Of a stretch of DNA of 64,000 nucleotides, positions 6,820 to 40,965 are shown in pieces. Source of the stretch: an uncultured virus (IMG/VR IMGVR_UViG_3300035698_010745) (taxonomy: Duplodnaviria > Heunggongvirae > Uroviricota > Caudoviricetes); the IMG/VR virus record IMGVR_UViG_3300035698_010745, one strand, 5' to 3'. The position numbers were made by a program, and so were the translations under genes. Position 1 is the stretch's first letter. Each line of letters begins with the position of its first letter. Below the pieces are notes generated by a model, which did not search any database, was not told the DNA's origin, and saw nothing but the letters and a program-made list of their open reading frames with translations.

Positions 6820-7512
6820 TCAGCAAGAGGTATTTCGGGGAGTACGAGCTTCACTTTGCAGCCTTTCCGCTTCAAGGACAGCCTCACGCAATCGCCAAGG
6901 CCGGAAGCCCCGGACATCGACACCTACGTTCAGGAGAAGCTTGTCGTCCACCCATTTGTGCTTCCAAGCCTCGTGAACGTGTCCACATAACACAATATTA
7001 CAGAAATCCGGCAATTCCTCGACCCGGTACACCGGACGATGGACCAGGAAAAGAGAATGGCCCATGACCTCCAACACGGCGAATTTCAGGCCACGTATGC
7101 CATTACCCCGGTCGTGATTCCCGGTAATATGAACCACCTTGCCGTTAAGATTTTGTTCCCAATCCCACGCTCCCATGCCATCCCACCGGGACAGACAGAA
7201 GTCCCCGATGTGGTAGACGGTGCTATCCGGGCGAACCACTTCATTCCAGTTCTCAGTCAGGGCATCGCTCATCTCCCTGGCCCGCTCTGCCTTGATTTCC
7301 TTGGAAACCCAATGGCCACGCTTGCGCTGTCCGGGTTCCGAGGGATTCCAGATATAGTCGCCGGGCCGAAGCCAGGGCCGGTCACAGTAGGGCAAAATGT
7401 TAGCGTGGCCAAGGTGCATGTCGGAGGTCACAAAAATCCCATCCAGCTCGCTATGCTTCGGACGTGACATCTTTTTCCTCCCGAAAGGGGGTGTAATAGA
7501 CCACCTCTGCAC
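6820..7512 (-). CDS. calcineurin-like metallophosphoesterase
   Basis: SDMHLGH, HIGDF, TGNHD and CGHVH motifs; true start probably MSRPK. Confidence 0.85.
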   Translation of the reverse strand: MQRWSITPPFGRKKMSRPKHSELDGIFVTSDMHLGHANILPYCDRPWLRPGDYIWNPSEPGQRKRGHWVSKEIKAERAREMSDALTENWNEVVRPDSTVYHIGDFCLSRWDGMGAWDWEQNLNGKVVHITGNHDRGNGIRGLKFAVLEVMGHSLFLVHRPVYRVEELPDFCNIVLCGHVHEAWKHKWVDDKLLLNVGVDVRGFRPWRLREAVLEAERLQSEARTPRNTSC

Positions 7513-8209: not shown

Positions 8210-8569
8210 AACTTCTTCCTCAAAGATGATGGCAATTGCCCCGTCCGGGCTGTCAAGAGACCTTATCGGTTCCCAGGGACGACCACATCGTTCGCAAAAT
8301 GGCATCGAATTCTGGAACCGGGTATCAATCGAAGCCTTGTCATAGCCGCAATGGGCACACTTATGGTATTTCTGCCAACGCATCCGCCGGTACGGCAGAT
8401 TCCCGTAAACTGGATGTCTTTCCGGCATCAGACTCCTCTTTCCTAACAAAAATGGCTCCACCCATAGCTGCCTCTCCCCCGGCCTCACGCCTGCCACACC
8501 CCTCACAAGGCGTCCTGACATGGTGGGCACACCCACGGTGCAGACAAGGCTCGCCGTCCTTGTACGTCT

Positions 8570-9756: not shown

Positions 9757-10281
9757 TCATACGGGACACCCGCATTGCGGGCAATGGGGCTTTAGCAACA
9801 CATCCTCTTTCCGGGCGCGAGCCGCTTTCTTAACCCGGCACTCCAGCTTCAGGGCCTGGCTCTTTGTCAAACCACCCCTCCATGCCTTCAAGTGTACAGG
9901 AAGGCGTCCACGGGTATACCGGGCACCCTTACCCTTGCCGTGAACCCAAATGCGCTTCTGTAAGTCATTCGTGGCCCCACAATAAAGCGTACCGTCCGAA
10001 CACTTCAATAGGTAGACTTTCCAGTTTGTCTGCGAGCGCTCCAACTGCCGACGGAGTTCCTGTATCCTGGCCAACCGGTCCTGCAACGGCACACAATGAC
10101 CTCGCTCCCACCGGTTTACGGTTGCGAAGGATACTCCCACGCTCTCGGCAAAATCAACCTGCGTCATATGTAAGCCCTTACGCAGTGCTTTGATTTGTCT
10201 CGGTATCATCAGAACACCAAGTGCTCGTGCTCGTGTTCCTGGCAGTAGGTGCCCGTTGTATTCGTCGCGGGGGCACCACAC
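9757..10281 (-). CDS. XRE-type HTH fused to a GIY-YIG nuclease domain
   Basis: [32 protein letters not shown] (HTH), then [23 protein letters not shown] (GIY-YIG, YhbQ-like). Confidence 0.8.
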
Positions 10282-14470: not shown

Positions 14471-14741
14471 TGGCGGACGAGACGAGATTCGAACTCGCAA
14501 AACAGTGGCCATCGGCGTTTGGGAAACGGGTGACATGCGCTTATTACATTCACCTGGTGTAATCACTCTTCGCTTTCCACCAGGTCGCCACAGGCACTCT
14601 TTACAACCCTGCCAAATGAGCCTCTCGGGGACCGCAACAACGCTGCTATAATTACCCTGAGTACCCAGCCACCGTCCCGATTAGGGGAACCAGTGCATTC
14701 AACGTTTTTACTGGCGCATTTTTCCTCTCTGCCACTCGCCC
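14471..14741 (-). ncRNA. 271-nt tRNA-like RNA with giant variable-arm insertion and non-canonical anticodon loop
   Basis: Acceptor GGGCGAG/CTCGTCC+G-CCA; Ser-like D arm; stem CCAGT/ACTGG with a 15-nt loop; T arm GCGAG-TTCGAAT-CTCGT; ~190 nt between anticodon and T arms. Confidence 0.7.
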
Positions 14742-14825
14742 TGGTGCCGGGAGCGAGATTCGAACTCGCACGCCCGAAGGCCCCGAATTTTAAGTCCAGG
14801 TTGTCTGCCATTCCATCATCCCGGC
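14742..14825 (-). tRNA. tRNA-Leu(TAA)
   Basis: Cloverleaf with CTGGA-CT TAA AA-TTCGG, long variable arm, encoded CCA. Confidence 0.92.
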
Positions 14826-14847
14826 ATATTTTTAACTGAATACGACT

Positions 14848-14938
14848 TGGCGGAAGGAATGGGGGTCGAACCCATACGCCCTTTCGGGCAGCCAGATTTC
14901 AAATCTAGTGCCGCCGCCATCTATCGGCTGGTCCTTCC
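14848..14938 (-). tRNA. tRNA-Ser(TGA), atypical D-arm junction
   Basis: GGAAGGA/TCCTTCC acceptor, CTAGA-TT TGA AA-TCTGG, long variable arm, G73, CCA. Confidence 0.85.
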
Positions 14939-14946
14939 AAATATAC

Positions 14947-15033
14947 GACGAGTGCCTTAAACCACTCAGCCAACCGGCCCGAAGGCCAGTGTGGGATTCG
15001 GACCCACGAGGACACCGAAGTGCCCTACTCGTC
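14947..15033 (-). ncRNA. circularly permuted tRNA-Ser-like domain with UUCG-capped acceptor stem
   Basis: Order is GACGAG, variable arm, T arm, ACTGGCC-TTCG-GGCCGGT, D arm, CTCGTC. Confidence 0.75.
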
Positions 15034-15035
15034 TC

Positions 15036-15125
15036 TGGCGGAGAAGACAGGATTTGAACCTGCGGATGTTTTATCACCTCTCGCTTTCCAGGCGAGTGCC
15101 TTAAACCTGACTCAGCCACCTCTCC
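15036..15125 (-). tRNA. tRNA-Ser(GGA)
   Basis: CTCGC-CT GGA AA-GCGAG, long variable arm, G73, CCA. Confidence 0.92.
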
Positions 15126-15132
15126 AATTCGC

Positions 15133-15155
15133 TGGCGGAAGATATGGGACTTGAA
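15133..15155 (-). repeat. degenerate duplicate of the tRNA-Ser(CGA) 3' end
   Basis: TTCAAGTCCCATATCTTCCGCCA versus TTCAAATCCCTCCTCTTCCGCCA of the tRNA at 15933. Confidence 0.6.
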
Positions 15156-15163
15156 AATCATAA

Positions 15164-15189
15164 TTCTTTGATATTCAGTCTAAGGGTAG
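15164..15189 (+). promoter_or_regulatory. putative class-2 phage promoter TTCTTTGATA-N12-GTAG
   Basis: Immediately upstream of the AGGAGG RBS of the plus-strand endonuclease gene. Confidence 0.5.
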
Positions 15190-15198
15190 GAGGATGAT

Positions 15199-15876
15199 AT
15201 GCACCCGCTCTACACAGAAACCGAATTCAAAGCTGCCAAATCACGAAACAAACTACCACTTAAATGTTTTACTTGTGAGCAACCATTTTTGCTTAGCAAA
15301 AACAGAATACAATGCTCTCTTTCTCCCCACTCCAACGACAACGGAATGTTTTGCAGTAAGAAATGTACCGGCCTATATTTTATGCCAAATGTCGTATGCC
15401 TCCAGTGCTCAACCACCTTCCGAAAGAAGAGAACCCAAATCTCCAAATCTAAATCTGGCAATCATTTCTGTTCTCGTTCATGTGCTGCCATCTACAACAA
15501 TGCCCACAAGAAGCACGGGACCCGACGGTCAAAACTCGAAGCATGGCTTGAGGAACAACTCACCGCCATTTATCCCGACCTTGAATTTCATTTCAACCGC
15601 AAAGATGAGATTCTGTCAGAACTCGACATCTATATCCCTTCGCTCCGGTTGGCCTTCGAACTCAATGGCATTTATCACTACGAACCCATCTACGGTCAGG
15701 ACAAGCTCGATGCCATTCAATCTAACGACCATCGCAAGTTTGCTGCTTGCCATGAAGCGGGGATTAGCCTCTGCTCCATTGACACATCTCATCAAAAATA
15801 CTTCAAAGAGCAATCATCACGAAAATTCCTGAAGATTATCCAAAACATCATCGACTCTCGCTTGTCAGACTCTTAG
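15199..15876 (+). CDS. putative homing endonuclease (Zn-finger repeats plus a PD-(D/E)XK/Vsr-like domain)
   Basis: C..C...FCS..C repeats; ELDIYIPSLRLAFELNGIYHY motif; AT-richer than flanks; antisense within the tRNA array. Confidence 0.75.
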   Translation: MHPLYTETEFKAAKSRNKLPLKCFTCEQPFLLSKNRIQCSLSPHSNDNGMFCSKKCTGLYFMPNVVCLQCSTTFRKKRTQISKSKSGNHFCSRSCAAIYNNAHKKHGTRRSKLEAWLEEQLTAIYPDLEFHFNRKDEILSELDIYIPSLRLAFELNGIYHYEPIYGQDKLDAIQSNDHRKFAACHEAGISLCSIDTSHQKYFKEQSSRKFLKIIQNIIDSRLSDS

Positions 15877-15933
15877 CCAGTCTTTCGACTGTTTCTAGCC
15901 GGAACCACGTAGAGGTGGCCTGATACTCCGGCT
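15865..15933 (-). ncRNA. HDV-like (theta-type) self-cleaving ribozyme at the tRNA-Ser(CGA) 3' end
   Basis: P1 AGCCGGA/TCCGGCT, P2 TCAGGC/GTCTGA, P3 CAC-CTCTAC-GTG, P1.1 CT/AG, P4 CAGTC-GAAA-GACTG, J4/2 GCTAAGA. Confidence 0.8.
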
Positions 15934-16021
15934 GGCGGAAGAGGAGGGATTTGAACCCCCGTGCGCTTTCACGCGCCTCCGATTTCGAATCGGGCCGATT
16001 GCCAGGCTCTCGCACTCTTCC
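15933..16021 (-). tRNA. tRNA-Ser(CGA)
   Basis: CCGA-TT CGA AA-TCGG, long variable arm, G73, CCA. Confidence 0.88.
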
Positions 16022-16090
16022 ATAAGGAACACAGGGACTTTGGAACGCAGTCTTGCCCATATTCCTCGGCTCGCAAGCTAGGTACTCCTT

Positions 16091-16179
16091 TGGCGGAAGG
16101 GACAGGATTTGAACCTGCGTACGCTTTCACGCGCCTGGGATTAGCAATCCCGCCGATTACCCGGCTCTCGCACCCTTCC
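16091..16179 (-). tRNA. tRNA-Ser(GCT)
   Basis: GGGA-TT GCT AA-TCCC, long variable arm, G73, CCA. Confidence 0.88.
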
Positions 16180-16183
16180 AAGT

Positions 16184-16342
16184 TCGTCTCCACACCAATA
16201 GTCACAACGGGCTTTATCTGGTCCGGCGTGTCTGCCATTTCACCACCTCGGCCATAGGCCAAGGACAGGTTTCGAAACCTGCACGTCCTTTCGGACACCG
16301 GTTTTGGTAGAAGTATCCCACTGTTGAAGCGTGTTTCGACGA
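16184..16342 (-). ncRNA. yrlA: YrlA-like Y RNA with a permuted Leu-type tRNA domain
   Basis: Terminal TCGTC/GACGA stem with GTCGAA motif; internal order variable arm, T arm, looped acceptor stem CCTTGGCC-TAT-GGCCGAGG, D arm; scaffold shared with 18924-19056. Confidence 0.72.
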
Positions 16343-16427
16343 TGGCTGCTGGGACAGGTCTCGAACCTGCAAGCCCGAAGGCGGCACATTAACAGTGTGC
16401 TACGGCTACCAATTTCGTCACCCAGCA
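16343..16427 (-). tRNA. tRNA with Asn (GTT) anticodon and class-II long variable arm
   Basis: TGCTGGG/CCCAGCA acceptor, GCACA-CT GTT AA-TGTGC, GCC-TTCG-GGC variable hairpin, G73, CCA. Confidence 0.8.
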
Positions 16428-16431
16428 ATAA

Positions 16432-16606
16432 ATCATGGCAACCGATTCGGGCTTTTACCGCCCGGCGAGGCTTGACTCGGTAAACATCAAGCAAGGTTTC
16501 CATCCGGCTTTGGAAGCTACAAATGCCTTGTGGGCACCGGGCAAGGGCGAACCATTACCTGAACTCCACACAAGGTTCATCCGTCAGGGCTCCACCCCTC
16601 GGACAT
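16432..16606 (-). ncRNA. candidate structured ncRNA (multiple hairpins, possible loop-loop pseudoknots)
   Basis: Fills the spacer between the two Asn tRNAs; hairpins GCTTGAT/GTCAAGC, CGGGC/GCCCG and TTCCA/TGGAA; loop TTTACCG complementary to CGGTAAA. Confidence 0.45.
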
Positions 16607-16682
<76 letters not shown>

Positions 16683-16687
16683 ATCAA

Positions 16688-16761
16688 TGGAGGCGGGTAT
16701 CAGATTCGAACTGATGTGGATTGCTTTGCAGGCAATTACCTGGCCACTCGGACAACCCGCC
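16688..16761 (-). tRNA. tRNA-Cys(GCA)
   Basis: ATTGC-CT GCA AA-GCAAT, U73, CCA. Confidence 0.92.
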
Positions 16762-16781
16762 GTCTATTCAACTTTTCAAAT

Positions 16782-16864
16782 TGGTGGGCCGGGGAGGAAT
16801 TCGCACCTCCACAGAATAACGGGTGTTTTACAGACACTTGGGCTCACTCTTGCCCAGCCGACCC
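16782..16864 (-). tRNA. tRNA-Tyr(GTA), atypical T loop
   Basis: GTGT-CT GTA AA-ACAC; T loop TGCGAAT instead of TTCGAAT; CCA. Confidence 0.8.
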
Positions 16865-17005
16865 CTTTTCGTTCATATAACCATCTTCGCTCATAGCGTC
16901 CTCCTTGCGGCATGTCCGGCATGTCCGCTTTGCTCTGTGACGTTTCCACCACTTGTGCCAGCTCGTGCTGGCCTTCTGTTTCAACCTGCCTTTTCTGAAC
17001 CTCAT

Positions 17006-17094
17006 TGGTGCCGACGAGAAGACTCGAACTTCCACGGGATTTAACTCCCACTAGGCCCTCAACCTAGCGTGTCTACCAGTTCCACCACATCGGC
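17006..17094 (-). tRNA. tRNA-Leu(GAG)
   Basis: CTAGG-TT GAG GG-CCTAG, long variable arm, A73, CCA. Confidence 0.92.
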
Positions 17095-17100
17095 ATAATC

Positions 17101-17300
17101 AACGATTGAGCTGCGGGACACCACCATGTCCCACTATTTGGTGCTCTTTACAAAGACCAACCCGAAGGTCAGCGCGGCCAATCCACAGAAGGGCTATGCC
17201 CCGAACCCGTTACTTGCGACATGACTCGGTTTCCCGTTTACCATGCCACTCCCTCGGGGCCTGCCGGTCCCTGGTTTCGCGGTGGTGCCGCTCAATCGTC
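17101..17300 (-). ncRNA. candidate 200-nt multibranched structured ncRNA
   Basis: 11-bp terminal stem GACGATTGAGC/GCTCAATCGTT; nested stems GGCACCACC/GGTGGTGTC, GCCCCGA/TCGGGGC and GTGGCATG/CATGTCGC; GAAA, TTCG and GTAA tetraloops. Confidence 0.6.
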
Positions 17301-17321
17301 AAATCTCTTTCGTTCCTGCCT

Positions 17322-17410
17322 TGGTGCTGCGAGAGAGATTCGAACTCTCATGGGACTTTCGTCCTCTGGTTTTTGAGACCAGCGCCTCCGGCCAATTGGG
17401 CTACCGCAGC
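17322..17410 (-). tRNA. tRNA-Leu(CAA)
   Basis: CTGGT-CT CAA AA-ACCAG, long variable arm, A73, CCA. Confidence 0.9.
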
Positions 17411-18097
17411 CTTTCTCCATCTGGCTATAGTCGGGGGACTAACACCATGCTTCCTCGCCGAACCACGAACTCCAAGCTCTTTAACGTCATCTAGTATGAA
17501 ATCATCTGGAATCTTTCTCCTCTTTCTCCCAATGGACCCACAACATTTTATACACCTACCCGTCGACCTTTTTTCCCTCAGAGGCTTCCCACAACCTTCA
17601 CAAAAATAACTACCACCACGAAAAGCCTTTCTATTTCTTCCCGCAAACGTATCTTGTTGACTGTTACAGTTCGGACACAACATCCTCAAGTTTTCCACCC
17701 GATGGTCATTATTTACACCGTTAACGTGGTCAAGAACCATCACCAAGGTCTTTCCTCTCCACTGGGGTTCTTGCCCACACTCAAAACACCTATTCTCAAC
17801 TAGCCCCTCTTTCATAAGTCGCTTTTTGAGTGCAGATGTCCCCCGGTACTTACTATCTTTGACAAGTATTTCGCACAGAGGCTTCTTCTTTACCCATGTA
17901 CATCGTTTTCCTGAAAGATGCCCTTGCCCAGTCCAGTGCGTTGTGAGAAGTCCCAATCTCGCCACCGCCCAATGCACTGTCTTGTAGTTCGCACCAGTTG
18001 GACTCATCCCTAATTGCCTCAAGACGCCAGCAATTGAATGATTACCCACAACCGCAACGGTCATCCCATCGTCGCTCCAAGTTCTCTTGCTCGACAT
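17348..18097 (-). CDS. HNH homing endonuclease
   Basis: C..CG...W.G..LVMVLDHVNGVNNDHRVENLRMLCPNCNS motif; C-terminal HTH-like segment; reading frame runs into tRNA-Leu(CAA). Confidence 0.88.
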   Translation of the reverse strand: MSSKRTWSDDGMTVAVVGNHSIAGVLRQLGMSPTGANYKTVHWAVARLGLLTTHWTGQGHLSGKRCTWVKKKPLCEILVKDSKYRGTSALKKRLMKEGLVENRCFECGQEPQWRGKTLVMVLDHVNGVNNDHRVENLRMLCPNCNSQQDTFAGRNRKAFRGGSYFCEGCGKPLREKRSTGRCIKCCGSIGRKRRKIPDDFILDDVKELGVRGSARKHGVSPPTIARWRKAAVAQLAGGAGLKNQRTKVP

Positions 18098-18117
18098 GGT
18101 TTCTCCTTTTGTCGAGC

Positions 18118-18146
18118 ATTATGGCAGACTTGTACACCCATGTCAA
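18118..18146 (-). promoter_or_regulatory. sigma70-like promoter of the HNH gene
   Basis: TTGACA-N17-CATAAT upstream of AGGAG RBS. Confidence 0.65.
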
Positions 18147-18550
18147 CCATGTCTGCCAGTTCCATCACATCGGCAAAATCAATTCTCTATCGGAGTAGGG
18201 GGATTGTCATTCACACGTGGAACCACAACCCATATGTCCGGCTCACCCACAAACGTACTCGTCCAAAGCTGAACCAGTTTCGTATTCACAGGTGTAGCCC
18301 ACCACCCTATCCTATCAGTCGGTACGTATCCATTCCCCTTCGGAACAGAGCCAACCGCACGAACCTTGTCACTCATTTCCACCATTCCTTGTTCTCGGGC
18401 TTCCTGCCGCACTCCGCATGGATGGCCCTGGTCATCTTACATCCCTTGTACCGGGCGTACCAGGTCGCCGGGATATCCTCGCGTTTCAGGACAACGTCCT
18501 TACCACACGCACAACACTTCATTGTCTTTTCCGCATTCATCACACTCCTT

Positions 18551-18577
18551 CATTGCATACAAAGCCCAGCATTCTGA
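18551..18577 (-). promoter_or_regulatory. class-1 phage promoter motif inside the tRNA array
   Basis: Exact TCAGAAT-N14-GCAATG, followed by two small ORFs (~18373-18540 and 18179-18376). Confidence 0.75.
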
Positions 18578-18584
18578 CATCAAT

Positions 18585-18605
18585 TGGTGGTCGAGGCGAG
18601 ATTCG
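18585..18605 (-). repeat. duplicate of the tRNA-Leu(TAG) 3' end, carrying the CCA
   Basis: 18-bp exact direct repeat (18588-18605 = 18749-18766) plus CCA. Confidence 0.8.
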
Positions 18606-18685
18606 TGTCTCACCAGAAATACTTCAAGCCTAAAACATCGTGGAAGTTCCTGGACATCATTACCGGTATCATCTCAAACCGTTTA

Positions 18686-18748
18686 TCAGACTCTTAGCCG
18701 ATTATCGTTACCAGCCCGAACCACGTGGAGGTGGTCTGAACTCGGGCT
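18686..18748 (-). ncRNA. HDV-like (theta-type) self-cleaving ribozyme at the tRNA-Leu(TAG) 3' end
   Basis: P1 AGCCCGA/TCGGGCT, P2 TCAGAC/GTCTGA, P3 CAC-CTCCAC-GTG, P1.1 CC/GG, J4/2 GCTAAGA; P1 starts right after discriminator A73. Confidence 0.82.
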
Positions 18749-18829
18749 TGGTCGAGGCGAGATTCGAACTCGCACGCCCGAAGGCACCAGGTCCTAAACC
18801 TGACGTGGCTGCCGTTACACCACTCGACC
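18749..18829 (-). tRNA. tRNA-Leu(TAG), no encoded CCA
   Basis: TCAGG-TT TAG GA-CCTGG, long variable arm, A73 followed directly by the ribozyme. Confidence 0.9.
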
Positions 18830-18831
18830 AT

Positions 18832-18918
18832 TGGTGCTATCGGTGAGAGTCGAACTCACACGCCCTTGCGAGCACGGGCTTCTGAGGCCCGCGTGTCTAC
18901 CAATTTCACCACGATAGC
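18832..18918 (-). tRNA. tRNA-Leu(CAG)
   Basis: CGGGC-CT CAG AA-GCCCG, long variable arm, CCA. Confidence 0.92.
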
Positions 18919-18923
18919 ATAAT

Positions 18924-19056
18924 ATCGTCTCGCACCAATAGCCGCTGAGCGGTATGCCCAACCAACGCGGGCGTATTTCCCAGCTTTTTGTGGATGGCGG
19001 GAAATACTGGAATTGAACCAGTGAAGTATCGCTCTGCTGAAGCGTGCTTCGACGAT
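18924..19056 (-). ncRNA. yrlA: YrlA-like Y RNA with CCA inside the acceptor loop
   Basis: ATCGTC/GACGAT terminal stem with GTCGAAG; T arm ACTGG-TTCAATT-CCAGT; acceptor ATTTCCC-GCCATCCACAAAAAGCT-GGGAAAT; D arm GCCC/GGGC. Confidence 0.75.
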
Positions 19057-19132
19057 TGGTGGTGAGGGAGGAAATCGAATCCCCGACACCCTGGTCTTCG
19101 GCCAAGTGCTCTACCTACTGAGCTACCTCACC
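19057..19132 (-). tRNA. tRNA-Phe(GAA), atypical (C33, G37)
   Basis: CTTGG-CC GAA GA-CCAGG, A73, CCA. Confidence 0.82.
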
Positions 19133-19166
19133 ATAATGGGATGGCCCTGTGGTCTGGGCCATCCCC

Positions 19167-19190
19167 GTCGTATTCAGTTGTCAATGAACT
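19167..19190 (-). promoter_or_regulatory. rrn boxA-like sequence, also one arm of a long-range inverted repeat
   Basis: AGTTCATTGACAACTGAATACGAC resembles rRNA-operon boxA spacers; its last 13 nt are complementary to 14834-14846. Confidence 0.45.
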
Positions 19191-19193
19191 ATA

Positions 19194-19269
19194 TGGTGGC
19201 AACTACTGGAATTGAACCAGTGACGCGTAGATTTTCAGTCTACCGCTCTACCAACTGAGCTAAGCCGCC
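19194..19269 (-). tRNA. tRNA-Phe(GAA)
   Basis: Canonical 76 nt, GTAGA-CT GAA AA-TCTAC, CCA. Confidence 0.93.
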
Positions 19270-24463: not shown

Positions 24464-24539
24464 TGGTGCCCACAGCGAGAATTGAACTCGCAACATCCGA
24501 ATTTAGAGTTCGGCACTCTACCAATTGAGCTATGCGGGC
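24464..24539 (-). tRNA. amber suppressor tRNA (anticodon CTA)
   Basis: Canonical 76-nt cloverleaf, GCCCGCA/TGTGGGC acceptor, CCGAA-CT CTA AA-TTCGG, A73, CCA. Confidence 0.88.
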
Positions 24540-37517: not shown

Positions 37518-38144
37518 TCAGAAAATCTCAACTTCTGCCTTCCCGTCCGTTTCTGTTACCTCGCACACCCGGTCGGCAAAACCTCTCATAATAGGATGAT
37601 GCGTCAAGAAAACGACCTGGATGTCCAGCCTATCCGAAAGCATACGGACAAACTTGGCCACCAACTCCACCCGGTCCGGGTCCATGTGTTTCCAGCACTC
37701 ATCAAGGATACACACCTTGTCCGTTTGCTTGGCTCCCATCAACACCATGAGCCGCAAGGGCACCGACATGGTATCCGCCATGCCACCGCCAAATCCGCTC
37801 ATATCCCGCCGGACTTCTCCCTTGGACGTATCCCGGACCATCTCGATAGCCAGATGGCTCCGGTTATTCTTGACGGTGTAAGTCAGCTCGGCGCTATACG
37901 AATCGTCGTAAATGAGCCGCAATGCCTCGGTAATGATAGATTCGATACGGCCCTTCATGGAGCCACGTCGGGCATTGGCTAAATCCTCAAGGAAGGAAAG
38001 GCCCTCCTGGCAGATGTCCAGTTGCCCCGTCAGCTCGATGATACGTTCTTCGAGTTCGTCAAGTTGCCGATGGAGCAGAGCGTTTTCATTCTGCTTCCGG
38101 GTCAGCTCGGCCTTGCGGTCTTCAAGTACCTGTTGTGCGTTCAC
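37518..38144 (-). CDS. SMC/Rad50/SbcC-like ATPase C-terminal subunit
   Basis: Coiled coil followed by GFGGG signature, ILDE Walker B and FLTH. Confidence 0.7.
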   Translation of the reverse strand: MNAQQVLEDRKAELTRKQNENALLHRQLDELEERIIELTGQLDICQEGLSFLEDLANARRGSMKGRIESIITEALRLIYDDSYSAELTYTVKNNRSHLAIEMVRDTSKGEVRRDMSGFGGGMADTMSVPLRLMVLMGAKQTDKVCILDECWKHMDPDRVELVAKFVRMLSDRLDIQVVFLTHHPIMRGFADRVCEVTETDGKAEVEIF

Positions 38145-38980
38145 ACGTCACTCCCCAAAATTATGGCAAGGTGTCCATCATCGTCACAGTTTCCCACAAC
38201 GCCTTCCTTCTCGACGCAAACCTTTAGTGTGTCGAGGCCGTCATTGAACAATGTTCTCACAAATTCAGGACGGAAATGATTTTCCCTCCATTCCGAAAAT
38301 GAGTATAGAAGGCAACCATCACACGTACCCTCATACTCCTTGCCCTCTTTTTGCCAACCAAGCAGTTCGCCCTTGATACGGGCTCTTGCATCAAACCTCT
38401 TGTCATCTTTTTGGCACTTCTTGCATTGCTCCCTCTTCCAATCGTTACACTTCACGCAGAGTAACTGATAGTTTGAAGTATCCGCCGGATTGTAAGATAT
38501 GTTCACCCTTCCTCTGGTTTTGCCTGGCTGGTCATACGTGCCACAGCAATGGTCAATTTGGTGCTGACTCACGCTCTTGCCCAAGAGACCACAGCAAGCA
38601 CATGGGTCTTTCTTCCTGGGTGAGCGGAAATATTCTTTGACATCCTTCGGGATGTTCCGATTTATACGTCTCTTCTGTATGACGTATCCTGTCAACTGAA
38701 CGGACTCAATCTTCCCATTGGGCTTGTCCCTATGTATCGTCACCCACTTACCCAAACCCACCCCGTCCCTCAGAAATCCAGACCCGTTGCCGAAAGTGAT
38801 TCCAACCAGGGCCAACTCCTTTGCCGTAACCGGTTTTGATGTCCCATCCTTCGGATTGAACTCAAGTTCCGGCATCATAAGAAAGGCAACGGTTCTATCT
38901 GACCTGGAGAAAAGCGTCCGAGCGAATTCTTCAACACTCATCTTCTTCAGGTTTCGCAATGATGGCTGTGATTTCTTCAT
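38141..38980 (-). CDS. HNH restriction endonuclease, NlaIII/IceA-like
   Basis: FGNGS motif, C..C...QIDH...YQLLC.KCN.WKREQCKKC...RFDAR...C.GC; adjacent to an adenine MTase. Confidence 0.6.
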   Translation of the reverse strand: MKKSQPSLRNLKKMSVEEFARTLFSRSDRTVAFLMMPELEFNPKDGTSKPVTAKELALVGITFGNGSGFLRDGVGLGKWVTIHRDKPNGKIESVQLTGYVIQKRRINRNIPKDVKEYFRSPRKKDPCACCGLLGKSVSQHQIDHCCGTYDQPGKTRGRVNISYNPADTSNYQLLCVKCNDWKREQCKKCQKDDKRFDARARIKGELLGWQKEGKEYEGTCDGCLLYSFSEWRENHFRPEFVRTLFNDGLDTLKVCVEKEGVVGNCDDDGHLAIILGSDV

Positions 38981-39014
38981 CGTCGTTCTCCTCGTTTGGT
39001 TTCGTCGTTCTTGT

Positions 39015-40010
39015 CTAACGCGGAATCTCGAACAGGAACTCTTTCAACACAGATTCGTTGTACTGCCTGTTGCTAGAGACATCAGCCTTGTACCGACGTT
39101 GCGGCCTTGTGTGGACGGACATCCTGGGAAATGCCTGAACAACATCATCCAATGACATCAACCCATCACTACTATAACTGACATACACCCTCCTGGCAGT
39201 CGTCAGTTCCACAATCGACTGGAGGAAATGGAGACATCTCTTCGGGCTACAGAACACGCTGGAACACTCATCCTTCCACGGGCGAAGTCCTGTCTTTCCA
39301 GCAGGAATTGGGTTATCATTGCGGACGAAGGTTTCATAGAGATGGTAATTTGGGCCATACTGTCTATGGTTGTACGGAGGGTCAATGTACAAGATGTCTT
39401 CCCTCCACGCAGCTCGAAACTTTGGGTCTCCCAGTAAGGATAATATATCTCTGTTGAATACCGAGACTTCCCCCTGCTCTACTTGCCTTGGCCGCAAGCA
39501 AAACTTTTCGAGGGCTCGTTTTTTGAATTGCTTTAGAAATGCCGCTTGGACTCCCGTTGTATTGTGCAATCGACCTATCTCTTCTATTCCACAATACAAC
39601 AGATAGTTCCGAACCTTCCTATCGGTTATCTTGTCAATTTCTAATCTCAACCGGTCTATCATCGCTGCATTTTCTGCCGTAAAATATAGACGTGGCGGTT
39701 CAGAAGTGTCACAAAAATGAAGGACGAAATAGCCAGTCGTGCCGTCTAGCTTGTTTATCCTTTCGATGGCCACATTACCCTCTGCAATCTGGTTCTGTGT
39801 CAATCCGATACTGCCGTCAGACACTGCGGAAGGGAAAAGCATTATGTCATTAGAAACAACCCGGAAGCCAGTCGACGCGGCTCTCCGGCTAATAACACCC
39901 GACCCACTACATGCGTCAAGAAACACCGGCTTCTCCCCCTTGGATTCGGGGGAGGGAAAAATGTCAAACAGCCAGTCAACCAATTTCAATTTTGAGCCAA
40001 TGAAGTCCAT
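39015..40010 (-). CDS. DNA adenine methyltransferase (D12 class, M.NlaIII-like)
   Basis: FIGSKLKL, DACSGSG, LYIDPPYNHRQYG.NYH and VSYSSDG motifs. Confidence 0.85.
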   Translation of the reverse strand: MDFIGSKLKLVDWLFDIFPSPESKGEKPVFLDACSGSGVISRRAASTGFRVVSNDIMLFPSAVSDGSIGLTQNQIAEGNVAIERINKLDGTTGYFVLHFCDTSEPPRLYFTAENAAMIDRLRLEIDKITDRKVRNYLLYCGIEEIGRLHNTTGVQAAFLKQFKKRALEKFCLRPRQVEQGEVSVFNRDILSLLGDPKFRAAWREDILYIDPPYNHRQYGPNYHLYETFVRNDNPIPAGKTGLRPWKDECSSVFCSPKRCLHFLQSIVELTTARRVYVSYSSDGLMSLDDVVQAFPRMSVHTRPQRRYKADVSSNRQYNESVLKEFLFEIPR

Positions 40011-40020
40011 GTGCCGTGCC

Positions 40021-40965
40021 TCAGACTATCTGTTTGATGGTTTCCGCAACAACAGGGACAACCATAGAATTCGCGAACATCCCATATCGACGAGTCACAG
40101 GAACAACCGGGGGGAATCCGAATCCCTCTGGAAACCCAAATAACCTGCGACATTCATCCACAGTAGGCTTCCTCGCTTCACCAATCGCATGATTCACCGC
40201 TGCCACATAGGATATGTATTCTGACGAACTGCCATTCCGAGATATCGTATGCGTAATACAGTTGATGGAGTCTTTTCTGTAAGACTCCATCCTCTTTATT
40301 ACTTTTGGCTTGGACAGAAAATCCGCCGTTGCGTAGACATTGTCTCGGACACGACGGTCAAGAACAGTTGCCAGCGAAGGATGTGACCCCTGGCCAACAG
40401 GGATATCAATGTTCCTGTCTGCTCCGACAATCCACACCCTGCTCCTGTTCTGTGGCACTCCGAATTCTATAGAATTTGAACATCCATAACTAACCTTGTA
40501 CCCCATTTTCCCCATCCTCTTCAGGAGTTTCTTGAAGGTATTTCCACCGTCACGTGTTATCAATCCCTCAACATTTTCAGCCACAAACATTGCAGGACGA
40601 GACTTTTGAATCAACTTCAACGCTTGTAAGACCAATCTTCCTCGTAAGTCTGCCATCCCCTTGCCTTCTCCTGCTAAGGAGAATGGCTGACAAGGGAAAC
40701 CAAAGAAGAGGATGTCCACGAACGGCAACTGTCTAATCGTTGAGATATCATCAAAAAAGACCCGACATGAATGATTCCCCAAATATGTTTGCTTCACATA
40801 GGGGTCATTATCGCATGCGAATTCAACGGTGTGGGGTATCCCCAACGACTTCATCGCATATTCGGGGGCTCCAATCCCCGAAAACAATGTACCAACTTTC
40901 ATAGTCATCACAACACTATACACTCCTGGTCCGTATCCGTGCTTTAGAAATAGTCCTTGAGGCAC
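40021..40965 (-). CDS. C5 cytosine DNA methyltransferase
   Basis: LFSGIG, GFPCQPFS, ENV, PQNRSR and GFP...ANS motifs; start probably MTMKV. Confidence 0.9.
   Translation of the reverse strand: MPQGLFLKHGYGPGVYSVVMTMKVGTLFSGIGAPEYAMKSLGIPHTVEFACDNDPYVKQTYLGNHSCRVFFDDISTIRQLPFVDILFFGFPCQPFSLAGEGKGMADLRGRLVLQALKLIQKSRPAMFVAENVEGLITRDGGNTFKKLLKRMGKMGYKVSYGCSNSIEFGVPQNRSRVWIVGADRNIDIPVGQGSHPSLATVLDRRVRDNVYATADFLSKPKVIKRMESYRKDSINCITHTISRNGSSSEYISYVAAVNHAIGEARKPTVDECRRLFGFPEGFGFPPVVPVTRRYGMFANSMVVPVVAETIKQIV

Follow-up and report, generated by a model that had tools for sequence, protein, structure and literature searches.

Introduction

The transfer RNA (tRNA) operon of phage T4 also yields two stable non-tRNA RNAs, which are freed by tRNA processing; the likeness of that operon to the locus described here is one of description only. 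Our locus is a tRNA island, running from position 19269 down to 14471 on the minus strand of a 64,000-nucleotide (nt) stretch of DNA from an uncultured virus of the Caudoviricetes (IMG/VR record IMGVR_UViG_3300035698_010745); this whole stretch is referred to as the window. Besides 15 tRNAs, the island contains two RNAs resembling the YrlA class of bacterial Y RNAs (the Y-like RNAs Y1 and Y2), a 271-nt tRNA-like RNA, and homing endonuclease genes, one of which is joined to a predicted ribozyme of the hepatitis delta virus (HDV) type.

YrlA RNAs are found beside Ro60 in bacteria and in 22 phages, and their architecture, which has a GNCGAA-type motif close to the 5′ end, was described by Chen et al. 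2014 (PMC4201824). RNAs of the YrlA type have been termed circularly permuted tRNAs; RNase P opens the form from Mycobacterium smegmatis, which has an acceptor of 7 base pairs (bp), and CCA is added to it (10.1101/312249). Theta ribozymes are tRNA-associated minimal HDV-like ribozymes of Caudoviricetes, described by Kienbeck et al. 2024 (PMC10879173). The association of homing endonucleases with phage tRNAs has statistical support, these endonucleases help phages adapt, and phage tRNAs rescue infection from tRNA-cleaving systems, among which Septu and retron-Eco7 cleave the variable loop of class II tRNA-Tyr (PMC13096335). Theta ribozymes, YrlA RNAs, and homing endonucleases among phage tRNAs are each already known singly; their combination is new.

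Results

A diverged relative retains the island

A metagenome scan with the 5′ motif of the Y-like RNAs returned nine loci, of which five were chance matches in coding DNA and one (L056) was identical to part of the window. Two others, L053 and L054, overlap each other and come from a single contig of 102,890 bp, to which L061 is similar. This contig carries a syntenic island. Its order is Phe, Y1, four Leu, Tyr, two Cys, a 151-nt tRNA-like RNA, an HNH gene, and a class II tRNA(GUU), followed by Y2, a second HNH gene, Ser(GCU), a third Y-like RNA (Y3), three Ser, Leu(UAA), and a large tRNA-like RNA. The relative keeps the same tRNA set and the same three extra RNAs (Y1, Y2, and the 271-nt RNA), to which it adds the third Y-like RNA. 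The RNAs of the window's island are closely spaced on a single strand. Because a diverged relative keeps both the tRNA set and the three extra RNAs, the comparison supports a maintained module rather than a chance assemblage. This agrees with the initial annotation of the window, which had described a single composite operon whose spacer RNAs should recur in related phages; Y1, Y2, and the 271-nt RNA do so.

The Y-like RNAs share a conserved stem and carry a permuted tRNA body

Two spacers hold Y-like RNAs, both of which are more stable than their shuffled sequences according to the fold z score. Identities were determined by blastn.

18919-19056, minus strand: Y-like RNA 1 (Y1); fold z −3.3; 82% identical to L053 9734-9553
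16180-16342, minus strand: Y-like RNA 2 (Y2); fold z −3.5; 73% identical to L053 6052-5825

Y1 consists of a bulged closing stem (5′ strand GUCGAAG), a T arm, a 7-bp acceptor hairpin with G-CCA, a 13-nt linker, and a D arm. Y2 contains the same conserved stem, followed by a variable (V) hairpin, an atypical T arm, a closed 8-bp acceptor hairpin that lacks CCA, and a Leu-type D arm. The 5′ strand of approximately 38 nt is near-identical in Y1 and Y2, and it pairs with a conserved 3′ strand to give three short helices between fixed unpaired motifs. The head placed on this stem is the body of a permuted tRNA, arranged in the order optional variable hairpin, T arm, acceptor hairpin, and D arm, so that the YrlA-type order of tRNA-like domains (V, T, acceptor-like stem, D) is found closed by the paired ends of the RNA.

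Comparison with the relative bears on each part of this structure. All pairs of the three closing helices are canonical in five of the five Y-like RNAs (two from the window and three from L053). The stems contain double compensatory changes (for example GCAC/GUGC, ACAC/GUGU, and GUAC/GUAC; UCGUC/GACGA versus GUUGC/GCAAC), the unpaired motifs GAA, GCUUCA, GRCUAUYG, and AUACUUC are invariant, and the acceptor hairpins of the orthologues are wholly different in sequence with their pairing kept. Pair tables for these RNAs, and for the ribozymes described below, were made by script; MAFFT misaligned the Y-like cores and the P1 strands of the ribozymes. The bodies are borrowed from Phe-, Leu-, or Ser-type tRNA, each RNA being built upon a different tRNA type, and the T arm of Y1 is identical at 20 of 20 positions to that of the first tRNA-Phe. 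Every Y-like RNA has its first base immediately 3′ of a CCA, either that of a tRNA or that of a tRNA 3′ fragment. The two window RNAs and Y1 of L053 end 3-6 nt before the next tRNA. These data show that the Y-like RNAs are a lineage-specific family of YrlA-shaped RNAs, in which a permuted tRNA body is carried on a conserved bulged stem.

Like YrlA, the Y-like RNAs have 5′ and 3′ ends that pair in a long bulged stem and a head with the order V, T, acceptor-like stem, D (PMC4201824), and Y1 has the 7-bp acceptor of the M. smegmatis form (10.1101/312249). The GNCGAA-type motif of YrlA is seen close to the 5′ end in exact form in the two Y1 orthologues, and with one base changed in the other three RNAs. 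Unlike YrlA, they lie inside a tRNA row and not beside rsr, and they have lineage-specific internal-loop motifs. The two YrlA-like RNAs of the initial annotation were thus borne out in architecture and fold z score, but the Rfam YrlA model (RF02553) does not match them and no Ro60 gene lies within the 64 kb. What is new is a family of Y-like RNAs that goes undetected by this model and has a conserved handle of its own, and the presence, without Ro60 in the 64 kb, of two to three Y-like paralogues per phage on different tRNA types.

A 271-nt tRNA-like RNA and a stem-less permuted tRNA

Two further tRNA-shaped RNAs lie toward the end of the island.

14471-14741, minus strand: 271-nt tRNA-like RNA at the island end; with tRNA-Leu(UAA), 76% identical over 370 nt to L053
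14939-15035, minus strand: stem-less circularly permuted tRNA; fold z −2.9; descriptor hit

The 271-nt RNA is composed of an acceptor with a G3.U70 pair, a 3-bp D stem, a 5-bp 'anticodon' stem with an unconserved loop of 13-15 nt, an insert of approximately 160 nt at the position of the variable arm, a T arm, and G-CCA. Folded alone, it is equal to its shuffles (z −0.03). Alignment of the two phages with RNAalifold yielded 72 pairs, 11 of them compensatory, with the acceptor stem and T arm included, and the G3.U70 pair, which is of the alanine type, is kept in both phages. The giant tRNA-like RNA of the initial annotation is therefore upheld by its conservation in the relative and by its compensatory pairs. 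From the canonical helices, the compensatory changes, and the fixed unpaired motifs, we infer that the Y-like RNAs and the 271-nt RNA (four RNAs) are under selection for structure.

The 271-nt RNA has no Rfam family and is not called by ARAGORN; an Ala-type tRNA-like RNA that stands outside the Rfam families is new. It resembles transfer-messenger RNA (tmRNA) in its G3.U70 acceptor and T arm and in enclosing a large domain, but differs in that it retains a D stem and an anticodon-like arm. We rejected tmRNA as its identity, there being neither an RF00023 match nor an ARAGORN tmRNA call, and the candidate frames of the two phages being 1 nt out of register. The 151-nt tRNA-like RNA of the relative (L053 7113-7263, minus strand) also has a G3.U70 acceptor and a T arm, and is without a counterpart in the window; ARAGORN calls it a tmRNA with a tag of 23 amino acids, a call that looks spurious. 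A full-length phage tmRNA (Rfam 105.7 bits) is found at L001 5756-6129 (plus strand), 3′ of a tRNA array that holds a relative of the endonuclease encoded at 15199-15876 of the window.

The stem-less RNA at 15035-14939 corresponds to the bare permuted tRNA of the initial annotation, and its fold z score bears that description out. A 6-bp closing stem at the place of the anticodon stem leads into a V hairpin and a T arm; these are followed by a 7-bp acceptor capped by UUCG and by a D arm of the Ser type. The whole amounts to a Y-like head without the long stem. Its D region is identical to that of tRNA-Ser(GGA) at 15 of 15 positions. The permuted-tRNA descriptor was noisy, and only hits backed by their context were used. 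A permuted tRNA-like RNA lies in the tRNA array of an unrelated phage (L024 5524-5680, minus strand; the same in L026, L032, and L033), where a T arm, a 7-bp acceptor hairpin, a D arm, and closing stems give a z score of −4.1.

Predicted HDV-like ribozymes within antisense homing-endonuclease cassettes

The following features record insertions into the island.

15865-15932, minus strand: predicted HDV-like (theta-type) ribozyme 1; RF02682 39.2 bits, E 1e-4; pairing
15199-15876, plus strand: 225-amino acid homing endonuclease gene, convergent with the island; PHROG 559, 3339, 9084 (E 4e-12 to 7e-8)
15133-15155, minus strand: leftover tRNA-Ser 3′ end (T-loop, acceptor 3′ strand, G, CCA) behind the cassette; read in the sequence
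18686-18747, minus strand: predicted HDV-like (theta-type) ribozyme 2; RF02682 30.3 bits, E 0.012 (match 18685-18747); P1/P2 pairing and core motif
18606-18685, minus strand: decayed cassette tail; aligns in antisense with the 3′ end of the 225-amino acid gene
18585-18605, minus strand: leftover tRNA-Leu(UAG) 3′ end (T-loop, acceptor 3′ strand, CCA); read and aligned
17348-18097, minus strand: HNH homing endonuclease gene, 249 amino acids, 3′ end overlapping tRNA-Leu(CAA); PHROG 10822 (E 3.8e-42), weak Pfam HNH
18148-18175, minus strand: tRNA-Leu(CAA) 5′ fragment, 28/28 identical to the intact gene of the relative (blastn against L053)

Each ribozyme abuts a tRNA. The first nucleotide (G1) of ribozyme 1 directly follows the encoded CCA of tRNA-Ser(CGA), and ribozyme 2 starts 2 bases past the acceptor stem of tRNA-Leu(UAG), these being the discriminator A and one extra A. 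Based on the ends assigned by ARAGORN, G1 lies 0-1 nt from the tRNA 3′ end in the two window ribozymes and in those of L005, L010, and L029, well within a distance of 5 nt. The two window ribozymes exhibit a compensatory pair difference in P1 and have different P4 hairpins. For the six ribozymes compared (the two from the window and those of L004, L005, L010, and L029), the six P1 sequences all pair (7/7 in five, 6/7 in L029), P2 is found in three or more sequences that are all paired, and P1-P4 are nested. The core is conserved, the first position of J4/2 being C in six of six, within GGCUAAGA or AACUAAGA. Scores against RF02682 (HDV-F-prausnitzii) were 40.0 bits for L010 and 35.3 bits for L004; the Rfam run covered 10 of the 33 endonuclease loci described below, and these two are the ones reported. 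Hits of our own HDV descriptor were counted only if they abutted a tRNA and had the conserved core. Taken by their sequence features, the window ribozymes are HDV-like (theta-type) and predicted to be self-cleaving.

The 225-amino acid endonuclease is a Zn-finger protein of PHROG homing/HNH families and is without a Pfam hit. Its relatives were found at 33 IMG/VR loci, some of them duplicates, and all 33 have tRNAs; the family matches together with this residence among phage tRNAs identify it as a free-standing homing endonuclease. At 25 of the 33 loci no more than 70 nt separate the 3′ end of an antisense tRNA from the end of the endonuclease match, and in L004, L005, L010, and L029 an HDV-like ribozyme that has the same core and a different P1 and P2 occupies the gap between tRNA and endonuclease. 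L003 and L006 have a similar arrangement as judged by eye, with a P1 mismatch. The TAG stop codon of the endonuclease is the reverse complement of the CUA of ribozyme J4/2, which holds the catalytic C, in the window, L004, L005, and L010; in L029, L003, and L006 the open reading frame (ORF) extends deeper into the ribozyme, to loop L3. This overlap of an endonuclease stop codon with the catalytic C of a ribozyme is new.

Each cassette is followed by a leftover copy of the last 21-23 bases of the tRNA. Ribozyme 2 has behind it approximately 80 nt of endonuclease-tail antisense and then the tRNA remnant; its locus is a decayed cassette. Both ribozymes are thus parts of antisense homing-endonuclease cassettes, and ribozyme 1 and the endonuclease gene overlap tail to tail. 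L053 has neither a ribozyme nor the 225-amino acid endonuclease. The two HDV-like ribozymes of the initial annotation retain the support of two sub-threshold RF02682 matches at tRNA ends, but they do not belong to the conserved module, being absent from the relative and located in endonuclease cassettes.

The insertion of the 249-amino acid HNH gene follows a similar logic, with a fragment of the ancestral 5′ part of tRNA-Leu(CAA) upstream and a full replacement tRNA overlapping the 3′ end of the gene. The upstream fragment is overlapped by a sequence that resembles a promoter for this gene. Another free-standing endonuclease gene, with helix-turn-helix and GIY-YIG domains, lies outside the island at 9757-10281 (minus strand).

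The window ribozymes are like theta ribozymes in their HDV-like fold, in the placement of G1 at the 3′ end of a phage tRNA, and in the role proposed for them, that of tRNA 3′ end formation (PMC10879173). They differ in source, the window phage coming from salt-lake metagenomes and the set of PMC10879173 from gut samples, and in that one of the two window tRNAs encodes CCA before the cut, compared to only 4.5% in that set. They also differ in the overlap of the ribozyme with the end of an antisense homing-endonuclease gene and in the tRNA 3′-end duplicate behind it. The main text of PMC10879173, to which this statement is confined, does not mention homing or HNH endonucleases, and our literature search found no link between HDV-like ribozymes and homing endonucleases. 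SegB of phages T4 and T6 is likewise an endonuclease encoded among tRNA genes, where such genes reshuffle or amplify tRNAs (PMC13096335). SegB is a GIY-YIG enzyme, whereas the window encodes a Zn-finger protein of PHROG homing/HNH families and an HNH enzyme, and the available portion of PMC13096335 describes no ribozyme partner for SegB.

The tRNA set is rich in class II tRNAs

The tRNAs identified by ARAGORN, all on the minus strand between 14742 and 19269, are listed in their order in the island.

19194-19269, minus strand: tRNA-Phe(GAA), first gene of the island; ARAGORN; Rfam 68 bits
19057-19132, minus strand: tRNA-Phe(GAA) variant, C32-C33, loop CCGAAGA; ARAGORN, Rfam
18832-18918, minus strand: tRNA-Leu(CAG); ARAGORN, Rfam
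18748-18830, minus strand: tRNA-Leu(UAG), without encoded CCA, ending ...ACC-A-A before the ribozyme; ARAGORN
17322-17410, minus strand: tRNA-Leu(CAA); ARAGORN, Rfam
17006-17094, minus strand: tRNA-Leu(GAG); ARAGORN, Rfam
16782-16864, minus strand: tRNA-Tyr(GUA); ARAGORN; Rfam only 18.6 bits (cut-off 29)
16688-16761, minus strand: tRNA-Cys(GCA); ARAGORN, Rfam
16607-16682, minus strand: tRNA-Asn(GUU), class I; ARAGORN, Rfam
16343-16427, minus strand: class II tRNA(GUU), discriminator G, CCA; ARAGORN; no Rfam match
16091-16179, minus strand: tRNA-Ser(GCU); ARAGORN, Rfam
15933-16021, minus strand: tRNA-Ser(CGA), encoded CCA abutting G1 of the ribozyme; ARAGORN, Rfam
15036-15125, minus strand: tRNA-Ser(GGA); ARAGORN, Rfam
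14848-14938, minus strand: tRNA-Ser(UGA); ARAGORN; Rfam 30.2 bits
14742-14825, minus strand: tRNA-Leu(UAA); ARAGORN, Rfam

The set comprises five Leu tRNAs (CAG, UAG, CAA, GAG, UAA), four Ser tRNAs (GCU, CGA, GGA, UGA), Tyr, Cys, two Phe, Asn, and a tRNA that combines the Asn anticodon GUU with a long variable arm. This is an exact anticodon match to the 15 tRNAs given by the initial annotation (all five Leu and all four Ser, with Phe, Asn, Cys, and Tyr). Every tRNA type with a long variable arm (five Leu, four Ser, and Tyr) is encoded in the island, and 11 of the 15 tRNAs have long variable arms (class II). The gathering score of Rfam RF00005 (29 bits, sensitive run) was reached by 13 of the 15. 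CCA is encoded in 14 of 15, the exception being tRNA-Leu(UAG), and the anticodon loop is ordinary in 14 of 15, the exception being the second tRNA-Phe (19057-19132), in which C33 replaces the universal U33.

The class II tRNA(GUU) is kept in both phages (window 16343-16427; L053 6376-6466, minus strand). It is the only intact GUU tRNA in the relative, the ordinary GUU gene there being split by an HNH insertion. An amber-suppressor tRNA(CUA) at 24464-24539 (minus strand), 5 kb upstream of the island, is also kept in the relative (L054 11117-11190, minus strand). Reassignment of amber by way of this suppressor was rejected for the window, where TAG is the stop codon of 18 of 71 ORFs and little coding length would be gained by read-through.

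The remaining spacers

The spacers that hold none of the RNAs described above, and a small ORF, are listed below.

19133-19193, minus strand: spacer with a 10-bp hairpin; fold z −5.4; conserved block and a hairpin of changed sequence in L053
18373-18543, minus strand: Cys-rich ORF of 56 amino acids; partly conserved (18528-18494 versus L053 9172-9138)
17095-17321, minus strand: 227-nt spacer with a long closing stem; z −3.0; no match in the relative
16865-17005, minus strand: remnant of a small protein gene and a mini-ORF with Shine-Dalgarno sequence and ATG, not a structured RNA; 72% identical to L053 8569-8464, where the ORF is intact
16428-16606, minus strand: 179-nt spacer with a weak fold; z −1.0; no match in the relative
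16022-16090, minus strand: 69-nt spacer; z −1.5; 3′ half 87% identical (16059-16024 versus L053 4062-4025)

The inventory of the initial annotation is correct for the most part, with exceptions among the spacers. The two largest hold protein genes, namely those for the 225- and 249-amino acid endonucleases and the small conserved ORF. Among the additional RNAs that had been proposed, the segment 17005-16865 is a gene remnant, and 17321-17095 and 16606-16428 have no counterpart in the relative. The mini-ORF (MSEDGY...; window 16865-16905, minus strand) has a strong Shine-Dalgarno sequence, is conserved at L053 ~8440-8480 (minus strand), and runs into the 5′ end of tRNA-Tyr.

The window and searches for its relatives

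The window is phage DNA, as indicated by a protein of 1745 amino acids with PHROG matches to tail proteins; its phage proteins also include CobT/CobS-like proteins, an NAD-dependent ligase, methyltransferases, and a T4 gp30.3-like protein. Its DNA was present only in salt-lake metagenome runs (9 sequencing runs). Contigs of 4 runs were placed on the window as identical short pieces at a depth of 2-6; the joints in these contigs have sides of only 20-30 nt, which we read as tRNA cross-matches that are uninformative on the presence or absence of the cassettes. No close relative of the window was found among 50,697 phage records. Megablast of the island against the phage collection gave no match, and sensitive blastn gave matches to tRNAs only. 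In IMG/VR, the exact ribozyme pattern was found at 0 loci, and the Y-like 5′ pattern (18 letters, 17 specified bases) at three, all of them chance matches in coding DNA without tRNAs. A neighbouring protein of 218 amino acids is without relatives in IMG/VR. A radical-SAM protein encoded 5 kb upstream of the island has matches at 16 IMG/VR loci with identity of at most 41%; of these, nine were scanned and none has a tRNA island downstream of the match, two having one or two isolated tRNAs. Elsewhere in the window, at 38141-40965 (minus strand), an IceA-like nuclease homologue adjoins Dam-type N6-adenine and C5-cytosine methyltransferases, in what looks to be a phage-borne cluster of restriction-modification-like type.

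Discussion

We consider it probable that this locus is a conserved polycistronic tRNA island that carries Y-like RNAs and a 271-nt tRNA-like RNA, and that has been invaded repeatedly by homing endonucleases, including those in ribozyme cassettes. Several results weigh against this interpretation. The comparative support comes from two phage lineages only, and the stem-less permuted tRNA and the 227-nt and 179-nt spacers are not shared by the single relative available. Among the 9 sequencing runs that contain window DNA, no RNA run is on record. The Rfam YrlA model gave no match at E up to 10, either in 7 kb or in 161 nt alone, and no TROVE/Ro60 or RtcB domain was found in the 76 ORF translations of the window. 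The motif GNCGAA(N0-1)G is exact only in Y1 of the window and of L053 (GUCGAAG); it is one base off in Y2 of both phages (GUCGAAAC) and in Y3 of L053 (UGCGAAG). A degenerate Y-like pattern and a pattern for the 271-nt RNA gave 0 hits in IMG/VR and in species genomes. Both ribozymes score below the RF02682 gathering score of 44, and across the genome our HDV descriptor performed at noise level, with 67 hits compared to 95 in the reversed sequence.

Under this interpretation the island would be transcribed as one RNA, from which RNase P acting at 5′ ends, together with 3′ trimming, would free the tRNAs and, alongside them, the mimics as discrete RNAs. The ribozyme would cut at its own G1 and so free the 3′ end of the upstream tRNA from a trailer of approximately 740 nt of antisense endonuclease sequence, and the selfish insertion would thereby spare the tRNA gene. 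A 2′,3′-cyclic phosphate end is established HDV ribozyme chemistry, and the cut tRNA would therefore bear such a phosphate, which would need to be removed. A calcineurin-like phosphoesterase encoded at 6820-7512 (minus strand) could be a candidate for the removal of 2′,3′-cyclic phosphate. The Y-like RNAs may be protein-binding tRNA mimics, with the stem and its GNCGAA-like motif docking a Ro60-type or other protein and the tRNA-shaped head engaging a factor that recognizes tRNA. The benefit to the phage may lie in tRNA supply alone or in shielding translation from a host attack on tRNAs.

The initial annotation had offered a different purpose, that of an anti-defence module in which the tRNAs sustain translation while the host's tRNAs are destroyed and the mimics soak up the nuclease. 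For anticodon-loop nucleases the mimics would be unfit as decoys, because they have no anticodon loop. The proposal is better posed with the long variable arm or elbow of class II tRNAs as the target, which would account for the grouping of all the Leu, Ser, and Tyr tRNAs with a class II Asn tRNA and with mimics that bear variable arms. It can then draw on the 11 of 15 tRNAs with long variable arms, on the retention of the same tRNA set in the relative, on the variable-arm hairpins or domains found in Y2, Y3 of L053, the permuted tRNA, and the 271-nt RNA, and on the existence of known systems that cut the variable loop of a class II tRNA (PMC13096335). However, no link to a defence system was seen in the 64-kb window, 14 of the 15 tRNAs have ordinary anticodon loops, and the bias of the set may arise from a larger tRNA set split over several arrays, the 64 kb being the part of the genome that was seen. 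We therefore regard an anti-defence module as possible but unlikely.

A more elaborate form of this idea, which we put forward tentatively and consider rather doubtful, is that the island is a counter-measure to host factors that recognize the class II variable arm or elbow. It would combine a full replacement set of Leu, Ser, and Tyr tRNAs, an Asn anticodon on a class II body, an abundance of variable-arm mimics that lack an anticodon, recruit a Ro60-like or phage protein through their common stem, and serve as decoys or as adaptors redirecting an RNA-decay or repair machine, and the 271-nt RNA, with its Ala-type acceptor, as a novel sort of chargeable mimic.

The mimics might instead be recombination debris, junctions of tRNA halves that were produced by endonuclease-driven rearrangement and are passively transcribed without function. 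Insertions have indeed left plain tRNA fragments in the island (18148-18175, 18585-18605, and 15133-15155), the mimics share identical stretches with neighbouring tRNAs, Y1 and Y3 of L053 resemble a tRNA 3′ half with G-CCA joined through a linker to a tRNA 5′ half, and the stem-less permuted tRNA is not shared with the relative. Debris would not be expected to yield five Y-like RNAs that have a common stem, fixed unpaired motifs, and compensatory pairs yet differ in their tRNA-like cores, nor orthologues that retain every helix at 73-82% identity. The 11 compensatory pairs of the 271-nt RNA also count against this origin, as does the acceptor of the permuted tRNA, which is closed by a UUCG tetraloop and not by a gene junction. 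On balance we judge such an origin for the mimics to be distinctly improbable.

That the Y-like RNAs are permuted pre-tRNAs, cut and re-joined into working tRNAs as in Cyanidioschyzon, is a possibility raised in 10.1101/312249 itself and is suggested by the 7-bp acceptor followed by G-CCA in Y1 and Y3 of L053, the form used by RNase P and the CCA enzyme in M. smegmatis YrlA (10.1101/312249), but it is highly implausible given that the ends form no anticodon triplet or 7-nt loop, that the closing stem by inspection lacks a bulge-helix-bulge (internal loops of 3-nt/2-3-nt and 6-nt/8-nt flank a 4-bp helix), that the acceptor of Y2 is closed and without CCA, and that normal tRNAs of the same types are already present in the island.

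A conserved tRNA island bearing tRNA mimics and endonuclease cassettes has several consequences for phage biology. Phage tRNA rows are usually annotated as tRNAs separated by empty spacers; here approximately 1 kb of spacer consists of conserved tRNA-shaped RNAs that the family models do not recognize. The predicted ribozyme offers a concrete way for a selfish endonuclease gene to occupy a tRNA gene without destroying it, and its overlap with the endonuclease gene predicts which of the public theta ribozymes are parts of mobile elements and which are stand-alone tRNA processing signals. The role of the bacterial Y RNAs is a question that has stood since 2014, when they were described; should a protein bind the Y-like stem, this island would provide a compact system in which to ask what tRNA mimics do during infection.

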